Made by a program: the position numbers and the translations under genes. Below the pieces are notes generated by a model that searched no databases, was not told where the DNA came from, and saw only the letters and a list, made by a program, of their open reading frames with translations. From Methanocaldococcus jannaschii DSM 2661 (GTDB lineage Archaea; AGJL01; Methanococci; Methanococcales; Methanocaldococcaceae): DNA of 32,000 bases. The stretch's first letter is position 1; each line of letters begins with the position of its first letter. This document shows, piece after piece, positions 952-30,673 of this stretch. The DNA lies in assembly GCF_000091665.1 (NCBI RefSeq), contig NC_000909.1, positions 593,581 to 625,580 of the forward strand. The letters run 5' to 3'.

Positions 952-1139
952 AATAACCACCAAAAAAAACAACATATAAAACAACAATAAAATAACAATT
1001 ATATCTAATTTGTAATATTTAGTTAAAAAGTATTTATGAATTTTTTGTTCTGTATATGTGGTTATGCAAGTGCCTATGGGTGATATATTAATTTAAAATA
1101 AATAAAATAAAATTTATCAATAGCAAAAATAAAAAAGAT

Positions 1140-2243
1140 TTATCCAAATTTTAATTTCTTGATTTTCAATTTCATTGCTCTCTCTATATATCTCAGTTTT
1201 TTATATTCCCTTCTATTTATAATTGATATTGCCTTCCCTTTCTTTCCAGCTCTCCCAGTTCTTCCAATTCTATGCATATAAGATTCAGGATTTTGTGGAA
1301 GATGGTAGTTAATTACACAGTTTAAATCATTGACATCTATCCCTCTACTCATAACATCAGTGGCAATTAAAATCCTAATCTTTTTTTGTTTAAACAATCT
1401 TATAACCTTCTCCCTTTGAGATTGACTTAAATCTCCATGAATTGCTCCAGCTTTAAATCCAATATCTCTCAACATACTTGCCAATTCTTTAGTATCTCTC
1501 TTAGTTTTACAAAAAACTAATCCATAAAATTCTTTATTTTTTAAAAGTCTGCATAAAGCTTCAAATCTCTCATTTTCATTAACTTCAACATAACTCTGTT
1601 CAATATTTGCGTTTATCTTAGCTTTTATAAAGCTATAATCTCCCATATACTTTTTAGCCAAATTTAATATCTCCCTTGGCATAGTAGCAGAGAACAACAA
1701 AATCCTCTTGTCTTTATTACAGGCATTTAAAATCTTTTCAACGTCCTTAATAAAACCCATATTGAGCATTTCATCTGCCTCATCCAATATAAAATATTTA
1801 ACATTTTTTAAATTTAAAGTTCCTCTATTTATGTGGTCTAAAATTCTTCCTGGAGTTCCAACAACTATATTGGCATTTTTTAAAGCCTTAATTTGTGGAT
1901 ATATAGCTTTTCCACCATAAATTTTGGCAATCTTTAAATTTTTGTTACCTTTTAATGACTCTATCTCATCAGCCACTTGTATAGCTAATTCTCTTGTAGG
2001 AGTTAAAATAATTGCCTCTATTCCATTGTTTTCATTAACGAGCTCAATTAATGGAATTGCAAACGAAGCAGTTTTCCCACTTCCAGTTCTTGCTTGAGCT
2101 ACAATGTTATATTCATCATTTAAAAATAGTGGGATGACTTTCATCTGAATATCTGTTGGCTTTTCAAAACCTTTATTTCTAATGGCATTTAAGATATTAT
2201 CTGACAAATTTAATTCGTTAAAATTCATATATTCCACTTCCAA
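1140..2243 (-). CDS. DEAD-box ATP-dependent RNA helicase
   Basis: Motifs present: Q-motif (GFEKPTDIQ), Walker A (AQARTGSGKT), PTRELA, DEAD, SAT, HRIGRTGRAG. The track start at 2243 is TTG. The ATG at 2228 (MNFNEL..) follows a GTGGA Shine-Dalgarno-like site and may be the real start. Confidence 0.95.
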   Translation of the reverse strand: MEVEYMNFNELNLSDNILNAIRNKGFEKPTDIQMKVIPLFLNDEYNIVAQARTGSGKTASFAIPLIELVNENNGIEAIILTPTRELAIQVADEIESLKGNKNLKIAKIYGGKAIYPQIKALKNANIVVGTPGRILDHINRGTLNLKNVKYFILDEADEMLNMGFIKDVEKILNACNKDKRILLFSATMPREILNLAKKYMGDYSFIKAKINANIEQSYVEVNENERFEALCRLLKNKEFYGLVFCKTKRDTKELASMLRDIGFKAGAIHGDLSQSQREKVIRLFKQKKIRILIATDVMSRGIDVNDLNCVINYHLPQNPESYMHRIGRTGRAGKKGKAISIINRREYKKLRYIERAMKLKIKKLKFG

Positions 2244-2261
2244 TAAAATTTAATTTTTAAA

Positions 2262-2286
2262 GATGCTAAAAAGAGATTTTAGCATC
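2262..2286 (-). terminator. Perfect 10-bp stem / 5-nt loop hairpin between the methyltransferase-like gene and the helicase gene
   Basis: gatgctaaaa-agaga-ttttagcatc. On the minus strand it is followed by ttt/aaaaatt. It could be a terminator for the upstream gene or a 5'-UTR structure of the helicase mRNA. Confidence 0.25.
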
Positions 2287-2302
2287 CTCAACAACTATGG
2301 GC

Positions 2303-3364
2303 TTATAGTATAAAAATGTTTGCATCTTTGAAAAACTTCAATCTCATCTTTTTAATTATTTCTGATGAGTTTAAATCCTCTTTTTGAATTTTTAAAATTT
2401 CTTCTGGGATGTTACCTTTTTTTATCTGTTTTGTTGATAGATATTTTCCTATTTTAATTAATTTTTCTTTTAACTTTTCTCTTCTTTCCTCTCTATCCTC
2501 TATTATTTTATCTTTAGTTAAGCTTAATGTTTCATCCCTATAAGGTAAAGCTATAACTGATAAAGCTATAACTCTCTCATCAACCTCATTAATTCTATTT
2601 GGTTTAAAATTTGGGTTTTTATAAGCTAAGGTTATTCCTCTTTTTCTCCCAACACTCTCCTTTTCTGAAATTACAAAACCACAATCAACCAAAGCACTTC
2701 TAAATGGAATGGCTGAAGAGTAAGATATCAAAACTCCATTATCTTCCATTCTTTTATAAATTTCTTTCAAAAAATCGTAAGTGTAGAGGGTAGGGTCTCT
2801 TTTTGGTGAAAATGCATCGTGAAAAACCACATTGTATTTTTTATCACTCTTTATTATAAATTTTCTCGCATCTCCAACGTATAGATTGATATTATCATAA
2901 TCTGACTTATATTCAATGCCAATTTTATTTAAAAAATACTCTCTAACTTTATCTTTTATAATCTCATGCTCTTTATATGGAATATCTAAAAATAAAGTTA
3001 AAAATAAAACTTCCTCACAAATCTCAACCATATCAATCTCTGCATTTTTGTTATAATGTAAAGCAGCTATAGCATTGTATCCCATACCACTGCACAAATC
3101 CAAAACTCTTGGATTGCTTAAATCAGTTATCTTTGATGGCTTAGCAAACTTATAAATTGCTTCTTTTAAAGCTCCAACCTTTGAATGCATCATCTCCTCT
3201 TCATCCTCTGCCTTTAAAGTGTAAGTTCCATCCTCAGTTTCTACTAAGACATGTTCTTCCTTTAACTCTTTAATTAATCTCTCTTTAATATCTTTTTCAT
3301 TCTTTCCATTGTAAATTTTCATATACTTTCTAATAATTTCTAAGGCTTTTTTGTTTGGAAGCAT
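2303..3364 (-). CDS. SAM-dependent methyltransferase, MnmC-type methyltransferase-domain-like
   Basis: SAM motif I (VLDLCSGMGYNAIAAL) and HDAFSPKRDPTLYTYDFL, which resembles the MnmC N-terminal methyltransferase signature (D-x-F-x-P-x-x-N/D-P-x-x-W/Y). The track start at 3373 is GTG; I prefer the ATG at 3364. Confidence 0.5.
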   Translation of the reverse strand: MLPNKKALEIIRKYMKIYNGKNEKDIKERLIKELKEEHVLVETEDGTYTLKAEDEEEMMHSKVGALKEAIYKFAKPSKITDLSNPRVLDLCSGMGYNAIAALHYNKNAEIDMVEICEEVLFLTLFLDIPYKEHEIIKDKVREYFLNKIGIEYKSDYDNINLYVGDARKFIIKSDKKYNVVFHDAFSPKRDPTLYTYDFLKEIYKRMEDNGVLISYSSAIPFRSALVDCGFVISEKESVGRKRGITLAYKNPNFKPNRINEVDERVIALSVIALPYRDETLSLTKDKIIEDREERREKLKEKLIKIGKYLSTKQIKKGNIPEEILKIQKEDLNSSEIIKKMRLKFFKDANIFIL

Positions 3365-3380
3365 AACTCTCACATTATAT

Positions 3381-4079
<699 letters not shown>

Positions 4080-7168: not shown

Positions 7169-8344
7169 TTATTCATTTTTCAACTTTTCCCTCTTAATCA
7201 TTTTAAATTTCTTCCCTCCACACTCACAAACTAAATCCTCAACTTTCTTAACCTCTTCTCCAACTTTATGGATTTTTCCACATTTTAGGCATTTATAATA
7301 TCTTATAACTGGCTTAACTAAACCAGTATATATCTTCTCAGTGTCTCCAATATTTATCTTCAAATTTTTCCCAACCAATCTCGCTATAAATGTTGTGTTT
7401 GCAATTATCTCACTACCTTCATAATAATTAAAGTTTGGAATTAACTCTGAGATAACAAAACCCATATTTGTAATTGCTTTTTGAATAGAGAGCCACTCAT
7501 CTATTGGTTTGTGAGAATAGGAAAGATAAGCAATCCCTTCTTTTCCTAACGCTTCTATCCCTCTTGATAAAAATAACTTTAAGCCATCAACAGTATATGG
7601 CGGGTCTGTTGAGATAACATCAAATCTCTCCTTTAAATCTTGTGGTAGTGGGTTTCTTAAATCATGCTTAATTGTTTTAATTTTAACTCCTTCTTTTTGT
7701 GAAAATTTTTCTATAAGCTTTAAAATCCTCTCATCTATATCCACAACAGCTATTTCCTCAGCCATATTTGTTAGAGCGGTTGGTAAAGAAGTTAAGTCAT
7801 CATCTCCAACAAATAAAATTCTCTTTCCTTCTAAATCTCCTCTTTCATACATCAAAGCAGCCCTATAAGTTGATGTTTCTGGTGTTGCAAAGGATTGGTC
7901 TATAGTTGTATCAACTAAAGGCCTTCTCTTAGCCCAAACTCTAACCTTATTTAAAATATCTTCAAAAAATTCATCTAACACAATACCTCTACCATTACAA
8001 GTTTTGCAGGTAAGAGATTTTTTATACTTCAATTTTAAAAAGTTTTCAGCAAATTCTTTACCCAAATCTGTTAGCTCTGCTCCTCTTTCAGTTCTCTTTA
8101 ATATTTTTTCTCTCTCTAAGATAGTTCTAACCTTGGCAACTATTGGTAAGGGCAATCTCGTTTTTTGAGCAATCTTTTTTGTTGATATTGGCTGATGCCT
8201 ATAGATAACTCTAATTATATCTTCAACAGCTCTTTTTCCCTCAGCAATATCAGCTTTTTTAGCAACATTGTTTAAAAGTATTGAGAACTTCGTCTTTTCA
8301 TTAACTTCTACTTTACCTTTTCCAATTTTTCCAATGATTTTCAT
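7169..8344 (-). CDS. DUF43 / BpsA-family (branched-chain polyamine synthase-like) protein with N-terminal wHTH-like region and C-terminal zinc ribbon
   Basis: ILFVGDDDLTSL and STDPPYT motifs are typical of the BpsA/DUF43 aminopropyl- or methyltransferase-like fold. C-terminal CLKCG..CECGG zinc ribbon. GGTGA Shine-Dalgarno site just upstream of the ATG at 8344. Confidence 0.5.
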   Translation of the reverse strand: MKIIGKIGKGKVEVNEKTKFSILLNNVAKKADIAEGKRAVEDIIRVIYRHQPISTKKIAQKTRLPLPIVAKVRTILEREKILKRTERGAELTDLGKEFAENFLKLKYKKSLTCKTCNGRGIVLDEFFEDILNKVRVWAKRRPLVDTTIDQSFATPETSTYRAALMYERGDLEGKRILFVGDDDLTSLPTALTNMAEEIAVVDIDERILKLIEKFSQKEGVKIKTIKHDLRNPLPQDLKERFDVISTDPPYTVDGLKLFLSRGIEALGKEGIAYLSYSHKPIDEWLSIQKAITNMGFVISELIPNFNYYEGSEIIANTTFIARLVGKNLKINIGDTEKIYTGLVKPVIRYYKCLKCGKIHKVGEEVKKVEDLVCECGGKKFKMIKREKLKNE

Positions 8345-8378
8345 TATTTCACCAAAATAAGGAAAATATTACAGAAGA

Positions 8379-8445
8379 TTAACAGACCCTTGGTATTGGG
8401 TCTCCAATCGGCATATCGACAATTCTCCTACCAACAATATGTCTC
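8379..8445 (-). repeat. Displaced duplicate of the last 19 codons plus stop of hypE (non-translated copy)
   Basis: 8379-8438 aligns without gaps to 8501-8560 at 50/60 identity. It translates to the identical peptide IVGRRIVDMPIGDPIPRVC*. Homology seems to continue about 6 nt further (gtctc) across a 1-nt indel. Confidence 0.9.
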
Positions 8446-8500
8446 GCATGAAACTTTTAGAAAAGTTTCATCAAAACTTTTAAAAATTGCATTATGAATA
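8446..8500 (-). repeat. Family-A palindromic element (short version) between the two hypE 3' end copies
   Basis: Contains the hairpin atgaaactttt-ag-aaaagtttcat (8448-8471) and the conserved core gaaacttttag.aaaagtttcatcaaaac. The same core occurs at 23552-23580 and 25450-25478, and inverted at 25549-25577. Confidence 0.85.
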
Positions 8501-9508
8501 TTAACAAACTCTTGGTATCGGATCGCCAATAGGCATATCCACTATCCTTCTACCAACAATCGTCTCTATTATAACTCCCTTATGTTCTTTTGTAGCATAG
8601 CCAATGATTTCAGCATTCTTTCCTAATGGATGCTCCCTTAAAATCTCTAAGCATCTTTCAGCATCTTCCTTTTTAACTGCCATAACTACCTTTCCTTCAT
8701 TTGCTATAGTTAAAGGGTCTAAGCCAAGAATATCACAAATTGATTGAACTTCATCACTTATTGGGATTTTATCCTCAAATATAGTTATGCCAATATTACT
8801 CTTTTCAGCCATCTCATTTAACGCATCTGCCAAACCTCCTCTTGTAGGGTCTTTCATGGCATTTATTTGAATGCCCTCTTCTAAAACCCTCTCAATTAAT
8901 TTATTTATTGGAGCTACATCTGATTTTATGTTTGTTTCAAAATCAAATCCCTCCCTTGATAATAAAATAGCTAATCCATGCTCTCCTATATTTCCAGAAA
9001 CAATTATTGCATCTCCCTCTTGAACATTACAATCCCTTATTGCCTTTCCCCTATCAACAATCCCTATTCCAGCAGTTGAGATTATGATATCATCAACTCC
9101 ATCAGATACCTTTGTATCTCCTGTTATTATTGCTACTTCAGCCTCTTTAGAAGTTTCGTTTATTGATTTAACTATTTTCTCCAAATCTTCTAAGTTAAAA
9201 CCTTCTGGAATTATTAAAGATAGAGATAGAGCTAATGGCTTAGCTCCCATAACTGCTAAATCATTTACAGTTCCACTAACAGCCAATCTTCCAATATCTC
9301 CACCTGGGAAGAATATTGGTTTAACTGTGTGTCCATCAACAGTAAAAACAATCTCCTTATCACCTATTGGGATAGTTGCTGAATCATCCAAGCTTTCTAA
9401 GCCAATTCCTCCATTAACTGATGTTATCTCCAAATTTTTCAATATTACATCTTTTATAAGCTCCTGCATTACCTTTCCTCCAGCTCCATGCATTCGTGTG
9501 ATTTTCAT
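8501..9508 (-). CDS. hypE: [NiFe]-hydrogenase maturation protein HypE
   Basis: AIR-synthase-like/PurM fold sequence (HGAGGK.., GDTKV, DPTRGG) and the diagnostic C-terminal PRVC. Confidence 0.95.
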   Translation of the reverse strand: MKITRMHGAGGKVMQELIKDVILKNLEITSVNGGIGLESLDDSATIPIGDKEIVFTVDGHTVKPIFFPGGDIGRLAVSGTVNDLAVMGAKPLALSLSLIIPEGFNLEDLEKIVKSINETSKEAEVAIITGDTKVSDGVDDIIISTAGIGIVDRGKAIRDCNVQEGDAIIVSGNIGEHGLAILLSREGFDFETNIKSDVAPINKLIERVLEEGIQINAMKDPTRGGLADALNEMAEKSNIGITIFEDKIPISDEVQSICDILGLDPLTIANEGKVVMAVKKEDAERCLEILREHPLGKNAEIIGYATKEHKGVIIETIVGRRIVDMPIGDPIPRVC

Positions 9509-22901: not shown

Positions 22902-22930
22902 ATTTCCCCTCCCAGTTTAATAAAGTAAAG

Positions 22931-23042
22931 TATAGTTTCTTGCAAAACATTTTAGAATAAATAATACATTTATGAACACCTTCCAAAAGGAAGGTGTTCA
23001 AACCTTCCTTACGAACTTCAGTAACTTTTGCAAGAAACTATA
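22931..23042. repeat. Family-B palindromic element (MITE-like): perfect 17-bp terminal inverted repeats plus a central GC-rich hairpin
   Basis: TIRs are tatagtttcttgcaaaa (22931-22947) and ttttgcaagaaactata (23026-23042). Central 12-bp stem tgaacaccttcc-aaaa-ggaaggtgttca (22973-23000). A second copy lies at 26378-26484. Confidence 0.85.
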
Positions 23043-23118: not shown

Positions 23119-23532
23119 ATGAATGTTAAGATAATAGTTGAGTTTATAAAAAAGTTCGCAGAAGAAAATAACTGTAAAAAAATAGCTGAGATTGGAATTG
23201 GATTTAAATTTGATGTTGCAAGAGAATTAAGTAAATATTTCGATTTGATAGCCATAGATATTAATGAAAAAGCTATTGAAAAAGCTAAATTGTTGGGATT
23301 AAATGCTTATAAAGATGATTTATTTAATCCAAATATAAGTTTATATAAAAATATTGATTTAATATATTCCATAAGACCTCCAAGAGATTTACAGCCGTAT
23401 ATTTTAGATTTATCAAAAAAAGTTAATGCAAATTTAATTATAAGACCTCTTTTGAATGAGATGCCAATAAAAGAGCTAAAACTAAAAAACTACAAAGGAG
23501 AAGTGTTTTATATAAAAGAAAAACAAATTTAA
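23119..23532 (+). CDS. UPF0146-family protein (methyltransferase-like Rossmann fold)
   Basis: IAEIGIGFKFDVA..IAIDIN..IYSIRPP resembles the conserved archaeal UPF0146 family. I prefer the start at 23119 (MNVKII) over 23089. Confidence 0.6.
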   Translation: MNVKIIVEFIKKFAEENNCKKIAEIGIGFKFDVARELSKYFDLIAIDINEKAIEKAKLLGLNAYKDDLFNPNISLYKNIDLIYSIRPPRDLQPYILDLSKKVNANLIIRPLLNEMPIKELKLKNYKGEVFYIKEKQI

Positions 23533-23551
23533 GCTTTTAATTTCTTCCTTC
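23529..23551 (-). repeat. Displaced duplicate of the last 6 codons plus stop of rpl39e
   Basis: ttaagcttttaatttcttccttc versus 23627-23649 ttaagccttcaatttcttccttc (21/23 identical). Both encode RKKLKA*. Both mismatches are at wobble positions. Confidence 0.8.
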
Positions 23552-23626
23552 GAAACTTTTAGTAAAAGTTTCATCAAAACTCGTCCATTAAGTTAGGGCT
23601 TTCAGCCCTAATTAATGTCCATTCAC
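23552..23626 (-). repeat. Family-A modular hairpin element (two modules) between the rpl39e 3' end copies
   Basis: Module 1 is gaaacttttagtaaaagtttcatcaaaac (23552-23580). Module 2 is the bulged hairpin ccattaagttagggct-ttc-agccctaattaatg. Module 2 recurs inverted at 29669-29706. Confidence 0.85.
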
Positions 23627-23785
23627 TTAAGCCTTCAATTTCTTCCTTCTCCAGTATCTCATTTTTGGGTGGAATCTAACTCTCCCTCTTGTTTTAACAA
23701 TGACAAACAATGGAACTCTTCTATTCTGCTTTAATGCTTTAGCCAATCTTACCTTCTTTCCTAATGGCTTGTTGCTTCCCATCAT
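23627..23785 (-). CDS. rpl39e: 50S ribosomal protein L39e (52 aa; absent from the ORF track because it is under 60 aa)
   Basis: My reverse-complement translation gives [58 protein letters not shown] Shine-Dalgarno site immediately upstream. The sequence is characteristic of L39e. Confidence 0.9.
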
Positions 23786-25177: not shown

Positions 25178-25425
25178 TTTTGCACCTCTCTTAATTATTT
25201 TTTAATTAATTTATTTTGATTTTCTTTCTAATCTATTTATTTTGTGTTTAAGATTATGAGTTTTTGTAGCATAAAATCTATTTAAGGATATGTAGTTTAA
25301 ACCAATAAAACAAGCTTAGTATTAATTTGATTAGGTTATATTTATATCTTATTATTATCGATAGATACATCTTTAGGTTTAAAATTTAACTCTATAAAAA
25401 AGAGAAGAGAGTTAAATATAAAAAA

Positions 25426-25449
25426 TGGAGCCGGGGGTGAAATTTAAAC
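25426..25449 (-). repeat. Displaced duplicate of the 3' 24 nt of tRNA-Cys (CCA, discriminator, acceptor 3' strand, part of the T arm)
   Basis: tggagccgggggtgaaatttaaac versus 25580-25603 tggagccgggggtgggatttgaac (21/24 identical; the three differences are G-to-A in the displaced copy). Confidence 0.85.
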
Positions 25450-25579
25450 GAAACTTTTAGTAAAAGTTTCATCAAAACGGATGCATTGCTTCCTAACGGA
25501 AGCAATGCCTCTTAATTTACACCTCCGAGCGTAAGCGAGGAGGTGTCAGATTTTGATGAAACTTTCTTAAAGTTTCAAA
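25450..25579 (-). repeat. Family-A element, full-length 130-nt version: two hairpin-forming terminal inverted repeats flanking two GC-rich hairpins
   Basis: Left TIR gaaacttttagtaaaagtttcatcaaaac (25450-25478). Right TIR gattttgatgaaactttcttaaagtttc (25549-25576/7). Internal hairpins are gcattgcttcc-taac-ggaagcaatgc and acacctcc-(12 nt)-ggaggtgt. Confidence 0.9.
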
Positions 25580-25654
25580 TGGAGCCGGGGGTGGGATTTG
25601 AACCCACGTAAGGCGGATCTGCAGTCCGCTGCCTAGCCCCTAGACTACCCCGGC
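25580..25654 (-). tRNA. tRNA-Cys (anticodon GCA), CCA encoded
   Basis: Manual cloverleaf: acceptor GCCGGGG/CCCCGGC, D stem GTCT/AGGC, anticodon stem GCGGA/TCCGC with loop CTGCAGA, variable loop CTTAC, T stem GTGGG/CCCAC with loop TTCAAAT, discriminator U73 (a tRNA-Cys identity element). 75 nt. Confidence 0.93.
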
Positions 25655-26377: not shown

Positions 26378-26484
26378 ATAGTTTTTTGCAAAGTTATTAA
26401 AATTTATTAAGGAACATTGAACGCCTTCAAAGAAGGCGTTCATTATTATGCTTTACTAATATAAGACATTTTGCAAAAAACTAT
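26378..26484. repeat. Family-B palindromic element, second copy
   Basis: Perfect 15-bp TIRs atagttttttgcaaa (26378-26392) and tttgcaaaaaactat (26470-26484). Central hairpin tgaacgccttc-aaa-gaaggcgttca (26418-26442). Confidence 0.85.
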
Positions 26485-26542: not shown

Positions 26543-27787
26543 TTGATTTATGTTACTTTTACACCTTATGGAGCTTTTGGAGTTAAAGATAATAAAGAAG
26601 TTAGCGGATTGGAAGATATAGAGTATAAAAAATTGTTTAATGAGGAAGAAATTCCAGATATAATGTTTAAATTAAAAACTCAGCCAAATAAAATAGCAGA
26701 TGAGTTAAAAGAGGAATGGGGAGATGAGATTAAATTAGAAACACTTAGCACTGAACCATTCAATATAGGGGAGTTTTTAAGAAACAACTTATTTAAAGTT
26801 GGAAAAGAATTGGGATACTTCAACAACTATGATGAATTTAGAAAGAAGATGCATTATTGGAGCACTGAGCTAACAAAGAAAGTTATAAAGAGCTATGCTC
26901 AACAAAAGGATAAAATCATTATTCAAGTTGCAGAGGCAATATCTGATTTGGATAAAACTCTAAACTTGTTATCTGAGAGATTGAGAGAGTGGTATTCCCT
27001 CTACTTCCCAGAGTTAGACCACTTAGTTAATAAACATGAAGTTTATGCTAACCTAATAACAAAATTAGGAAAAAGGAAAAACTTTACCAAGAGTCAGCTA
27101 AAAAAAATCCTTCCTTCAAAATTAGCTGGGAAAATTGCTGAAGCCGCAAAAAATTCAATGGGAGGAGAATTGGAAGATTATGATTTAGATGTTATTGTTA
27201 AATTTGCTGAGGAAATAAATCACCTATATGAAAAAAGGAAGGAGCTATATAACTATTTAGAAAAATTGATGAACGAAGAAGCTCCAAATATTACAAAACT
27301 TGCTGGTGTTTCCTTAGGAGCGAGATTAATAGGTTTAGCTGGAGGATTGGAGAAATTGGCTAAGATGCCTGCTTCAACAATACAAGTTTTAGGTGCTGAG
27401 AAGGCTTTATTTGCCCATTTAAGGATGGGTGTGGAGCCTCCAAAACATGGTATAATATATAATCACCCTTTAATTCAAGGTTCTCCACACTGGCAAAGAG
27501 GGAAAATAGCAAGAGCTTTAGCATGTAAATTGGCTATAGCTGCAAGAGCTGATTATGTTGGGGATTATATTGCAGATGAACTTTTAGAAAAGTTAAATAA
27601 GAGAGTTGAAGAGATTAGAAGAAAGTATCCAAAACCACCAAAGAAAAAGAAGAAAGAGAAACCTAAAGCAAAGAAAAAAGAAAAGAAAGGTAAGAAAGAA
27701 AAATCAAAGAAAAAAAAGGATAAGAAAAAAGATAAAAAAGGTAAAAAAGAAAGGAAAGTTATAGGAAAAACAAAGAGTAGGAAATAA
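26543..27787 (+). CDS. nop5: Nop5 (Nop56/58 homologue), C/D box sRNP core protein, with a long Lys-rich C-terminal tail
   Basis: NOP domain (GVSLGARLIGLAGGLEKLAKMPASTIQVLGAEKALF, PKHGIIYNHP, GKIARALACKLAIAARAD). TTG start preceded by GGGGGG. The last ~65 aa are a KKE/KKD low-complexity region. Confidence 0.95.
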   Translation: MIYVTFTPYGAFGVKDNKEVSGLEDIEYKKLFNEEEIPDIMFKLKTQPNKIADELKEEWGDEIKLETLSTEPFNIGEFLRNNLFKVGKELGYFNNYDEFRKKMHYWSTELTKKVIKSYAQQKDKIIIQVAEAISDLDKTLNLLSERLREWYSLYFPELDHLVNKHEVYANLITKLGKRKNFTKSQLKKILPSKLAGKIAEAAKNSMGGELEDYDLDVIVKFAEEINHLYEKRKELYNYLEKLMNEEAPNITKLAGVSLGARLIGLAGGLEKLAKMPASTIQVLGAEKALFAHLRMGVEPPKHGIIYNHPLIQGSPHWQRGKIARALACKLAIAARADYVGDYIADELLEKLNKRVEEIRRKYPKPPKKKKKEKPKAKKKEKKGKKEKSKKKKDKKKDKKGKKERKVIGKTKSRK

Positions 27788-28965: not shown

Positions 28966-29658
28966 ATGGAAGACATTAAAATCAAAGAGATTTTTGAAAA
29001 CATCTATGAAGTTGATTTAGGAGATGGCTTAAAAAGAATAGCAACAAAATCTATTGTTAAGGGAAAAAAAGTATATGATGAAAAAATAATAAAAATTGGA
29101 GATGAAGAGTATAGAATTTGGAATCCAAATAAAAGTAAGTTGGCAGCTGCAATAATTAAAGGTTTAAAGGTTATGCCAATAAAAAGAGATTCAAAAATCT
29201 TATACTTAGGAGCTTCAGCTGGAACTACACCATCTCACGTTGCAGATATTGCTGATAAAGGCATTGTATATGCCATAGAGTATGCACCAAGGATTATGAG
29301 AGAGCTTTTAGATGCATGTGCTGAGAGGGAAAACATAATCCCAATTTTAGGAGATGCAAATAAACCTCAAGAATATGCAAATATTGTTGAAAAGGTAGAT
29401 GTTATCTATGAGGATGTTGCTCAGCCAAATCAAGCGGAGATTTTAATTAAAAATGCTAAGTGGTTTTTAAAGAAAGGCGGTTATGGAATGATAGCAATAA
29501 AGGCAAGGAGTATAGATGTTACAAAAGACCCAAAAGAGATTTTTAAAGAACAAAAAGAAATTTTAGAGGCAGGAGGTTTTAAAATAGTTGATGAGGTAGA
29601 TATTGAGCCGTTTGAAAAAGACCACGTCATGTTTGTAGGTATTTGGGAGGGAAAATAA
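28966..29658 (+). CDS. flpA: Fibrillarin-like rRNA/tRNA 2'-O-methyltransferase
   Basis: YRIWNPNKSKLAAAI, ILYLGASAGTTPSHVADI, VYAIEYAP, DVAQPNQAEI and IAIKARSIDVT are canonical fibrillarin. GGTGA Shine-Dalgarno site upstream. Confidence 0.97.
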   Translation: MEDIKIKEIFENIYEVDLGDGLKRIATKSIVKGKKVYDEKIIKIGDEEYRIWNPNKSKLAAAIIKGLKVMPIKRDSKILYLGASAGTTPSHVADIADKGIVYAIEYAPRIMRELLDACAERENIIPILGDANKPQEYANIVEKVDVIYEDVAQPNQAEILIKNAKWFLKKGGYGMIAIKARSIDVTKDPKEIFKEQKEILEAGGFKIVDEVDIEPFEKDHVMFVGIWEGK

Positions 29659-29742
29659 CATAAAATTGGACATTAATTGGGGCTAAAAGCCCCAACTTAA
29701 TGGACGGGAGGTATCCCAATAGGAGGTCTCCTCCTATGGTTG
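29659..29742 (+). repeat. Modular hairpin element between the two fibrillarin 3' end copies
   Basis: Hairpin 1 is cattaattggggct-aaa-agccccaacttaatg (the same module as at 23584-23620, inverted). Hairpin 2 is ataggagg-tct-cctcctat. Confidence 0.8.
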
Positions 29743-29786
29743 GAGAAAGACCACATATTATGTTTGTTGGAGTTTGGGAAGGATAA
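29743..29786 (+). repeat. Displaced, partly decayed duplicate of the last ~14 codons plus stop of fibrillarin
   Basis: gagaaagaccacatattatgtttgttggagtttgggaaggataa versus 29614-29658 gaaaaagaccacgtcatgtttgtaggtatttgggagggaaaataa. The terminal part reads MFVGVWEG* versus MFVGIWEGK*. There is a 2-nt insertion and a 3-nt deletion. Confidence 0.8.
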
Positions 29787-30542: not shown

Positions 30543-30574
30543 GATGAAAATAGATTAGATATACAAAAACTTCG

Positions 30575-30673
30575 TTTCCATCCTCCAAGAGGTCTGATTT
30601 TAATCTCGGAGACATATTCGACCTATGGAGAGCAGACACTAACTTTCCATCCTCCAAGAGGTCTGATTTTAAT
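30575..30673 (-). CRISPR. Mini CRISPR array: two identical 30-nt repeats and one 39-nt spacer
   Basis: Repeats at 30575-30604 and 30644-30673. Their reverse complement is attaaaatcagacctcttggaggatggaaa, which resembles the Methanocaldococcus ATTAAAATCAGACC....GGAATGGAAA repeat type. Spacer 30605-30643 is ctcggagacatattcgacctatggagagcagacactaac. Orientation is inferred from the ATGGAAA(G/C) 3' handle. Confidence 0.85.

Follow-up and report, generated by a model that had tools for sequence, protein, structure and literature searches.

Why does the hypE gene of Methanocaldococcus jannaschii end twice, and which of the two ends is its own? The gene lies in a 32,000-nucleotide (nt) stretch of the M. 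jannaschii DSM 2661 chromosome (NC_000909.1, positions 593,581 to 625,580; here the window, in whose numbering all M. jannaschii positions are given), where a coding sequence of 335 amino acids (8501–9508, minus strand; supported by the open reading frame (ORF) list, protein identity and Pfam) corresponds to MJ0676, the HypE protein, by exact protein identity and carries the Pfam domains AIRS and AIRS_C. As an initial annotation had claimed, the last 60 nt of this gene (8501–8560) recur downstream at 8379–8438: direct comparison of both 60-mers gave 50/60 identical positions in an ungapped alignment, and each copy translates to IVGRRIVDMPIGDPIPRVC*, that is, 19 residues and a stop codon. All ten mismatches (8507, 8510, 8519, 8522, 8525, 8531, 8540, 8543, 8546 and 8549) fall on position 3 of the hypE codons, an outcome with a chance probability of C(20,10)/C(60,10) = 2.5e-6, below the approximately 2e-5 estimated earlier; 4/10 of them are transversions. 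Here we argue, with a probability of roughly 0.6, that the working hypE tail and the insert that follows it were imported by recombination from a diverged lineage, recently displacing the native tail.

The 60-nt core is as first described, but the repeat itself is longer: a repeat search extended it to 65 nt without gaps (8374–8438 and 8496–8560), and gapped alignment to 72 nt (8374–8445) and 71 nt (8496–8566) with a 1-nt indel. The earlier statement that the copies contain no indels does not hold, as the distal copy has a 1-nt frame-breaking insertion at its 5′ edge (GAGAC-AT-ATTG versus GAGAC-G-ATTG in the proximal copy). The aligned proximal copy, P (8496–8566, minus strand), takes in the last 22 hypE codons, the stop and 5 nt; it forms the working gene end and is the more diverged of the two. 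The aligned distal copy, D (8374–8445, minus strand), is the displaced hypE 3′ end with the 1-nt insertion near its 5′ edge. Between them lies an insert whose hairpin, at 8448–8471, is real and whose unique part measures 50 nt (8446–8495) instead of the 55 nt given before; the insert is ORF-less, is assigned to neither strand and was recognised by its fold and its recurrence as a repeat module (module A, below). Beyond D follow a native intergenic spacer with a GGTGA ribosome-binding motif (8345–8373, minus strand), identified by homology to FS406-22 and L138, and the next gene, a BpsA_C family member by Pfam match (7169–8344); the distal stop codon (8379–8381) is 34 nt from the ATG of that gene (8342–8344), as had been noted. 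Five independent public assemblies all show this arrangement unchanged, and it is therefore no assembly artefact.

Origin of the two copies

The initial annotation had proposed looking for an empty hypE site by alignment to relatives, and such sites were found in the close relative FS406-22 and also in M. fervens, M. lauensis, sp. 16A, L138 and L122, where the hypE stop is directly followed by a 20–34-nt spacer and then by the next gene. D had been suspected to stand in the native context, and it does: its spacer matches those of FS406-22 and L138 (score 55 versus a null 95th percentile of 33), and the downstream gene is 6.0% diverged from that of FS406-22, evenly along its length. The hypE genes of M. 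jannaschii and FS406-22 are 7.4% diverged overall, 6.6% in the gene body and 18% at third positions of the body. D is close to this gene-wide 6.6–7.4%, differing from the functional FS406-22 tail at 5/60 sites, all synonymous, in agreement with the earlier inference that both copies evolved as coding sequence, and likewise from L125 at 5/60; P differs at 10/60 sites from FS406-22 and at 10/60 from L125. The corresponding three-point branches are 7.5 for P, 2.5 for D and 2.5 for FS406-22. Half of the third positions (50%) differ between P and D, versus 18% between M. jannaschii and FS406-22 in the hypE body (p = 1.2e-3), and divergence from FS406-22 reaches 17.5% over the final 80 nt of hypE, versus 6.6% for the body (Fisher p = 0.0014), with four of the differences of the tail lying in the 14 nt directly upstream of the repeat. 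M. jannaschii HypE reads KGVIIETIVG, with I (codon ATA, approximately 8567–8569) at the residue that is M in all relatives examined (KGV[IV]METIVG); the codon belongs to this high-divergence stretch immediately upstream of the repeat.

Polarisation with ten relatives showed that P has three states found in 0/10 of them and D has none, and at 7 of the 10 P/D differences D holds the state of more relatives. Identity to the first five relatives alone gave no decision on which copy was foreign; FS406-22 and the polarisation decided. Of the two copies, one of which had been thought to come from a diverged allele, P is thus implicated by its three private states and by the native spacer that D adjoins. 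The asymmetry between P and D is solid but not extreme, and the best reading is that P would derive from a more diverged Methanocaldococcus allele and that D would be the original M. jannaschii 3′ end, working until recently. The initial annotation had also argued against neutral drift after duplication, and such drift is excluded: all ten differences are synonymous, and no single age fits both copies. An old duplication would lead one to expect approximately 3.6 non-third-position changes in D, where 0 are observed (P = 0.027), and a young one 1.8 changes in P, where approximately 7 are observed (P = 0.003).

A family of palindromic modules at gene ends

The core of the hypE insert (module A; minus strand) reads GTTTTGATGAAACTTTTCTAAAAGTTTC. 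Its hairpin core, GAAACTTTTAG(T)AAAAGTTTCATCAAAAC, recurs at 23551–23580 and 25449–25478 and, inverted, at 25551–25579, and a second hairpin, module B, is found at 23582–23621 and 29667–29706, so that the 32 kb hold four copies of module A and two of module B, all outside genes or at gene ends. RNA folding gave the hypE hairpin a minimum free energy of −15 kcal/mol (z = −3.3 versus shuffles) and the element next to the tRNA-Cys gene −60.9 kcal/mol (z = −11.5); all folded elements range from −15 to −61 kcal/mol, with z from −3.3 to −11.5. The inserts are 50–127 nt long and ORF-less. Neither an integrase, a transposase nor another mobile-element gene lies near the four sites, and no transposase was found in the window. 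Rfam at gathering thresholds reported only the tRNA-Cys and two CRISPR repeats, with no family matching the hairpins; BLAST of the modules against plasmids and phages gave no match, and neither did the specific module-B and A–C junction patterns in viral contigs. A hairpin pattern did match viral contigs 35 times, but these matches look like AT-rich palindromes that arose by chance in unrelated contigs of low GC and were discarded. Loose module motifs allowing one mismatch returned mostly noise, for example matches to module E in L003.

The insert is a module of a multi-module palindromic family of Methanocaldococcus, which very probably corresponds to the published MJRE repeats. The palindromic repeats MJRE1–3 of M. 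jannaschii are referred to in passages of PMC2229807 and PMC2996958. The likeness lies in the organism, which is the same, and in short, palindromic, multi-copy and mostly extragenic repeats of approximately 100 nt without ORFs, some copies of which touch coding regions yet leave them intact; the insert was likened to MJRE by the published description. The abstract of the 2005 FEBS Lett paper by Suyama, Lathe and Bork is said to describe in-frame insertions into genes, and the paper reportedly mentions neither flanking gene-end duplications nor a foreign copy. A literature search for miniature inverted-repeat transposable elements (MITEs) or target duplications of Methanocaldococcus found nothing specific.

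The hypE duplication is one instance of a recurrent pattern, which the initial annotation had not recognised. At each of three further sites in the window, the element stands between imperfect direct repeats of the neighbouring gene's end. At the gene of ribosomal protein L39e (23627–23785, minus strand), D (23529–23551), an element of modules A and B (23552–23626) and P (23627–23649) follow one another, and the copies show two differences, both synonymous; a protein look-up for L39e matched M. jannaschii itself only. This insertion is common to FS406-22, where P equals D over 25/25 nt, and each M. jannaschii copy has gained one change since; long in-situ target duplication therefore does occur. 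Within the FS406-22 element (L142 3950–4075), a nested insertion of 46 nt, made up of two other hairpins (GATGAAAACCTAAACGGTTTTCAT and GCCCGAAGCTAACGCTTCGG), interrupts the A module that is shared with M. jannaschii. At the tRNA-Cys gene (25580–25654, minus strand), a 127-nt element (25450–25576) with inverted A modules at both ends separates D (25423–25449) from P (25577–25603); in the displaced copy, three G-to-A changes would disrupt the T arm, and the FS406-22 site is empty. At the fibrillarin gene (28966–29658, plus strand), P (29610–29658) is followed by an element of modules B and E (29659–29738) and by D (29739–29786), the copies differing by three synonymous changes, I/V and K/stop. 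In three relatives the fibrillarin site is empty or different (empty in FS406-22), and all of their proteins end in ...DHIMFVGxWxG*; D retains the I and the G* ending of these relatives, and P is alone in its V and carries an additional K. Fibrillarin shows the hypE asymmetry between P and D again.

The order in every duplication case, read in gene direction, is functional copy P, modules and displaced copy D. The module abutting D is in every case of A type or E type and of constant orientation, and in two cases the element end adjoining D is constant (...CTAAAAGTTTC directly at the junction). A small insertion giving ...ACATATT... stands at the 5′ edge of D at both hypE (8439–8445) and fibrillarin (29752–29758); AT slippage by coincidence, or a signature of the junction, may account for it.

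Beyond the window, other module sets have been inserted independently three times at this hypE position in relatives, and different module sets stand behind hypE in five or six further lineages (L125/L132/L133, L002/L124/L086, L003/L136, L135 and L137). The repeats there are of 42 nt in L125/L133 (40/42 identical, the two differences both synonymous) and of 26 nt in L135, which also has a second gene with such a repeat; the displaced copy of L002 is heavily decayed, and in L132, whose insertion is a variant of that in L125, the displaced copy contains a stop codon as well as an I-to-L change. The hypE site is therefore a polymorphic hot spot. An insert homologous to that of M. jannaschii lies behind hypE in sp. 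28A, where a blastn match extends beyond the stop codon as far as window position 8454; element-bearing hypE alleles therefore exist outside M. jannaschii. Synteny in sp. 28A (L001 11005–11160) breaks inside the A hairpin, and the DNA that follows is window 1126–4061, inverted, so that the rearrangement breakpoint coincides with the element; a synteny break of L003 also lies inside or beside modules. Palindromes acting as break or recombination hot spots would fit both the constant element ends and the synteny breaks at modules. When the stretch from the stop of P to the hairpin was aligned to the spacers of relatives as a diverged native spacer, the scores were not above shuffles, with sp. 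28A borderline, and the alignment for a decayed distal copy in sp. 28A was not significant.

Two further gene ends of relatives are duplicated around inserts of this kind. In M. vulcanius, the last 16 codons of trpB recur around a two-hairpin insert between trpB and trpA (L143 8542–8712; repeat of 48–53 nt), with four differences, all of them synonymous A/G changes at third positions. In sp. 28A (L001 20500–20763), a gene 5′ end (MLNPIILF...) is duplicated around a five-module element, A-C-B-E-A, and a TTTATAA box on the element side precedes the working ATG by 15 nt; both differences in the coding part exchange the synonymous Leu codons CTA and TTA, at the first codon position, and mere 3-nt mutational periodicity is therefore ruled out. 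Pooling eight duplications, 26 of the differing codons are synonymous and 5 non-synonymous, where free drift of displaced copies would give approximately 40% synonymous. Flanking repeats across the cases measure 23, 26, 27, 42, 48–53 and 65–72 nt. The frame-breaking insertions in D of hypE and fibrillarin, together with the decay of D in L132, L002 and tRNA-Cys, argue against D being translated and for displaced copies being relics, not maintained sequence.

Probable import from a diverged allele, and its alternatives

Under the reading that we prefer, import of the tail from a diverged lineage, the element would first have entered the hypE tail region in some lineage with a long target duplication, keeping the ORF intact, and DNA of this element-bearing allele would later have entered the M. 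jannaschii lineage by recombination. Of the two crossovers, the left would lie approximately 70–100 nt upstream of the stop codon and the right within the first 10–17 nt of the duplicate, so that P, approximately 15 nt upstream of it and, most probably, the element would have been imported. The product would be the donor tail, the element, a few donor bases with the indel and then the resident tail, and the differences would be confined to wobble positions because P and D would both be alleles that worked, rather than a gene and a duplicate in decay. Co-arrival of P with the insert is plausible, given the homologous insert behind hypE in sp. 28A. For hypE and fibrillarin alike, the final 80 nt in the reference M. 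jannaschii genome were probably not inherited vertically.

Several observations weigh against such an import. Among other species as well, the hypE tail varies more than the body (tail/body ratio 1.24 at the median and up to 3.7), and another 60-nt window of hypE is nearly as diverged, with nine differences; the divergence of P is at the high end of the within-gene range and no clear outlier, and its excess is moderate. No donor allele for P was found among approximately 20 Methanocaldococcus hypE tails from genomes and metagenomes, the best of which show 8–10/60 differences, and the comparison base amounts to approximately 250 kb of Methanocaldococcus sequence. The stretch required for the right-hand crossover is very short, and the AC-AT-ATT insertion in both M. 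jannaschii D copies, of hypE and fibrillarin, may reflect another junction mechanism. The nested insertion in FS406-22 duplicated only TT, so a long duplication is not a constant companion of module insertion; taken with repeat lengths of 23–72 nt, this therefore makes a transposase with a fixed stagger unlikely.

The main rival starts from an insertion in situ with a perfect long duplication, after which separate, element-less foreign DNA overwrote P only, in a tract that ended at the element. Perfect or near-perfect duplications exist (25/25 at FS406-22 L39e, 40/42 at L125 hypE), the raised divergence begins approximately 15 nt upstream of the repeat, as in a conversion tract, and a donor with this tail plus this insert was not found among the tails compared. 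We nevertheless regard this course as unlikely, since the insertion must be recent (D is pristine and FS406-22 empty) and must have been followed by a distant import ending exactly at the insert, since fibrillarin has the same asymmetry and two coincidences would be needed, and since sp. 28A shows that element-bearing donor alleles exist. The damaged 5′ edges and otherwise pristine remainders of the hypE and fibrillarin D copies, and the patchy occupancy of sites among close relatives, would also suit a loop-out, in which recombination between the repeats frees a circle of the element and one tail that, as a circle or in linear form, re-integrates by a single crossover into the same gene of another genome; this predicts a P that is resident at its 5′ edge and donor thereafter, and a D that is donor at its 5′ edge and resident thereafter. 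Such a route is improbable, however, as a 120-nt duplex circle is sterically implausible, the four FS406-22 differences just upstream of the repeat lie beyond what the circle carries, and no excision product or circle was observed. The repeat lengths of 23–72 nt seen here, the targets at a tRNA 3′ end and at gene ends and the exchange of the gene end for an element-borne copy are typical of archaeal integrative elements, and the tRNA-Cys case resembles a classic att duplication, as if attL and attR had remained from a tyrosine-recombinase virus or plasmid that carried the hypE 3′ end in its attP and whose DNA has since been nearly all lost. This origin we judge very improbable: an integrase or mobile-element gene lies near none of the four sites, the modules were not found in plasmid, phage and viral collections, and one integrase would not account for the same modules at hypE, L39e, fibrillarin, tRNA-Cys, trpB and a gene 5′ end.

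The strict synonymous-only pattern, at hypE and in other cases, might also arise if both copies were selected because both are used, either through intron-like removal of P and the insert or through DNA that cycles between occupied and excised states, in which case D would at intervals be the working end. Against this stand the stop codon at the end of P, the inability of direct repeats to pair into a bulge-helix-bulge motif, the frameshifting insertion at the 5′ edge of D and the free decay of D elsewhere (the L132 stop, the decayed L002 copy, the G-to-A changes of tRNA-Cys), which together leave it hardly credible. Simple duplication followed by independent drift, with the third-position pattern due to chance or mutational bias, suffices for the mildest cases (L39e and L125, two differences each) and for the tRNA-Cys duplicate. 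For hypE it is effectively refuted by the 10/10 synonymous mismatches (P = 2.5e-6), by transversions at 4/10 of them, which a deamination bias does not explain, by a divergence between the copies that exceeds the distance to the nearest species (p = 1.2e-3) and, in another case, by the synonymous first-position Leu changes. Other candidates were considered and rejected. The predicted fold of 8420–8520 contains the internal hairpin and weak flanking pairs only, not an archaeal bulge-helix-bulge intron; error-prone gap filling or deamination does not account for differences that are all synonymous and in 4/10 cases transversions; and gene conversion between the copies would homogenise them and give no synonymous enrichment.

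Neighbouring genes here are 0–35 nt apart, so that an insertion should break something, and duplication of the gene end spares both neighbours. With the tail of hypE read as imported, the synonymous-only differences would be a record of DNA patches of approximately 150 nt moving between Methanocaldococcus species, and the displaced native tail a clock for how recent the transfer was; the sites open a direct way to study how long recombination tracts are and how non-autonomous repeats spread in hyperthermophilic archaea. A wider generalisation, that ORF-less palindromic elements settle at gene termini with a 23–72-nt duplicate that rebuilds the gene end and spread between species as a unit of replacement end and hairpin through host recombination alone, is a speculative one that we hold doubtful. 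If true, it would describe a protein-free counterpart of the C-terminal replacement cassettes of homing endonucleases, and the AC-AT-ATT junction and the constant element end next to D would be signatures of an undescribed joining mechanism.

Known systems and further features of the window

In fungal mitochondria, mobile endonuclease ORFs (mORFs) replace the C-termini of genes, as in atp6 of Allomyces macrogynus and in atp6, atp9, cox2 and nad3 of Glomus; there, the native piece agrees with that of close relatives and the inserted piece is further diverged; most differences are synonymous, and horizontal transfer was inferred (PMC3630166). The architecture is the same, comprising a gene body, a foreign C-terminal piece, an element and a displaced native C-terminus, and an in-frame, apparently foreign C-terminal piece with the native end displaced downstream is present at hypE and likewise at fibrillarin. 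In contrast to mORFs, which encode LAGLIDADG or GIY-YIG endonucleases and reside in an organelle genome, the hypE insert is a 50-nt, ORF-less stretch of an archaeal chromosome with no endonuclease linked to it. Site-specific integrative elements with an attP that holds the 3′ end of the target tRNA or protein gene are similar in leaving a working, element-borne gene end and a displaced native one as direct repeats tens of bases long, and in favouring tRNA 3′ ends as targets, but here there is no integrase, the insert is tiny and the targets are many and unrelated.

The modules also resemble MITEs, repetitive extragenic palindromic (REP) sequences and bacterial interspersed mosaic elements (BIMEs) in being non-coding, hairpin-forming, multi-copy and clustered just after stop codons; no partner transposase or REP-associated tyrosine transposase (RAYT) gene was identified. 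Terminal inverted repeats, by which MITEs are recognised, are clear in the tRNA-Cys copy, and the hypE insert is a single hairpin without separate ones. MITE target duplications are short and of fixed length, whereas those found here are variable and span 23–72 nt. Homology-facilitated illegitimate recombination and short-patch gene conversion have been described experimentally in bacteria. They share with the present cases a foreign segment that is homology-anchored on one side, a heterologous insert and donor/resident mosaics, and would be candidate mechanisms only.

A 100-nt insertion relative to FS406-22 occupies 22930–23030, in a divergent promoter region. With perfect 17-nt terminal inverted repeats (TATAGTTTCTTGCAAAA), an internal hairpin (TGAACACCTTCCAAAAGGAAGGTGTTCA) and a flanking duplication of at most approximately 5 nt, it has the look of a classical MITE belonging to another family. 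A hairpin similar to 22973–23000, TGAACGCCTTCAAAGAAGGCGTTCA, lies at 26418–26442, within the called first codons of a ThiF-like ORF; the FS406-22 orthologue of this protein is 36 amino acids shorter, and the real start of the ORF is therefore probably downstream. Upstream of a DEAD-box helicase gene, the hairpin GATGCTAAAAAGAGATTTTAGCATC (2262–2286) stands in the same place in sp. 28A and sp. 16A, and it may be a regulatory element or a terminator and not a mobile repeat. The two CRISPR repeats (30574–30604 and 30643–30673; Rfam CRISPR-DR39) enclose a single spacer; they make up an isolated mini-array in the gap of 694 nt that follows hisB. At 27641–27776, a lysine-rich low-complexity repeat of the AAGAAA type encodes the C-terminal tail of Nop5.

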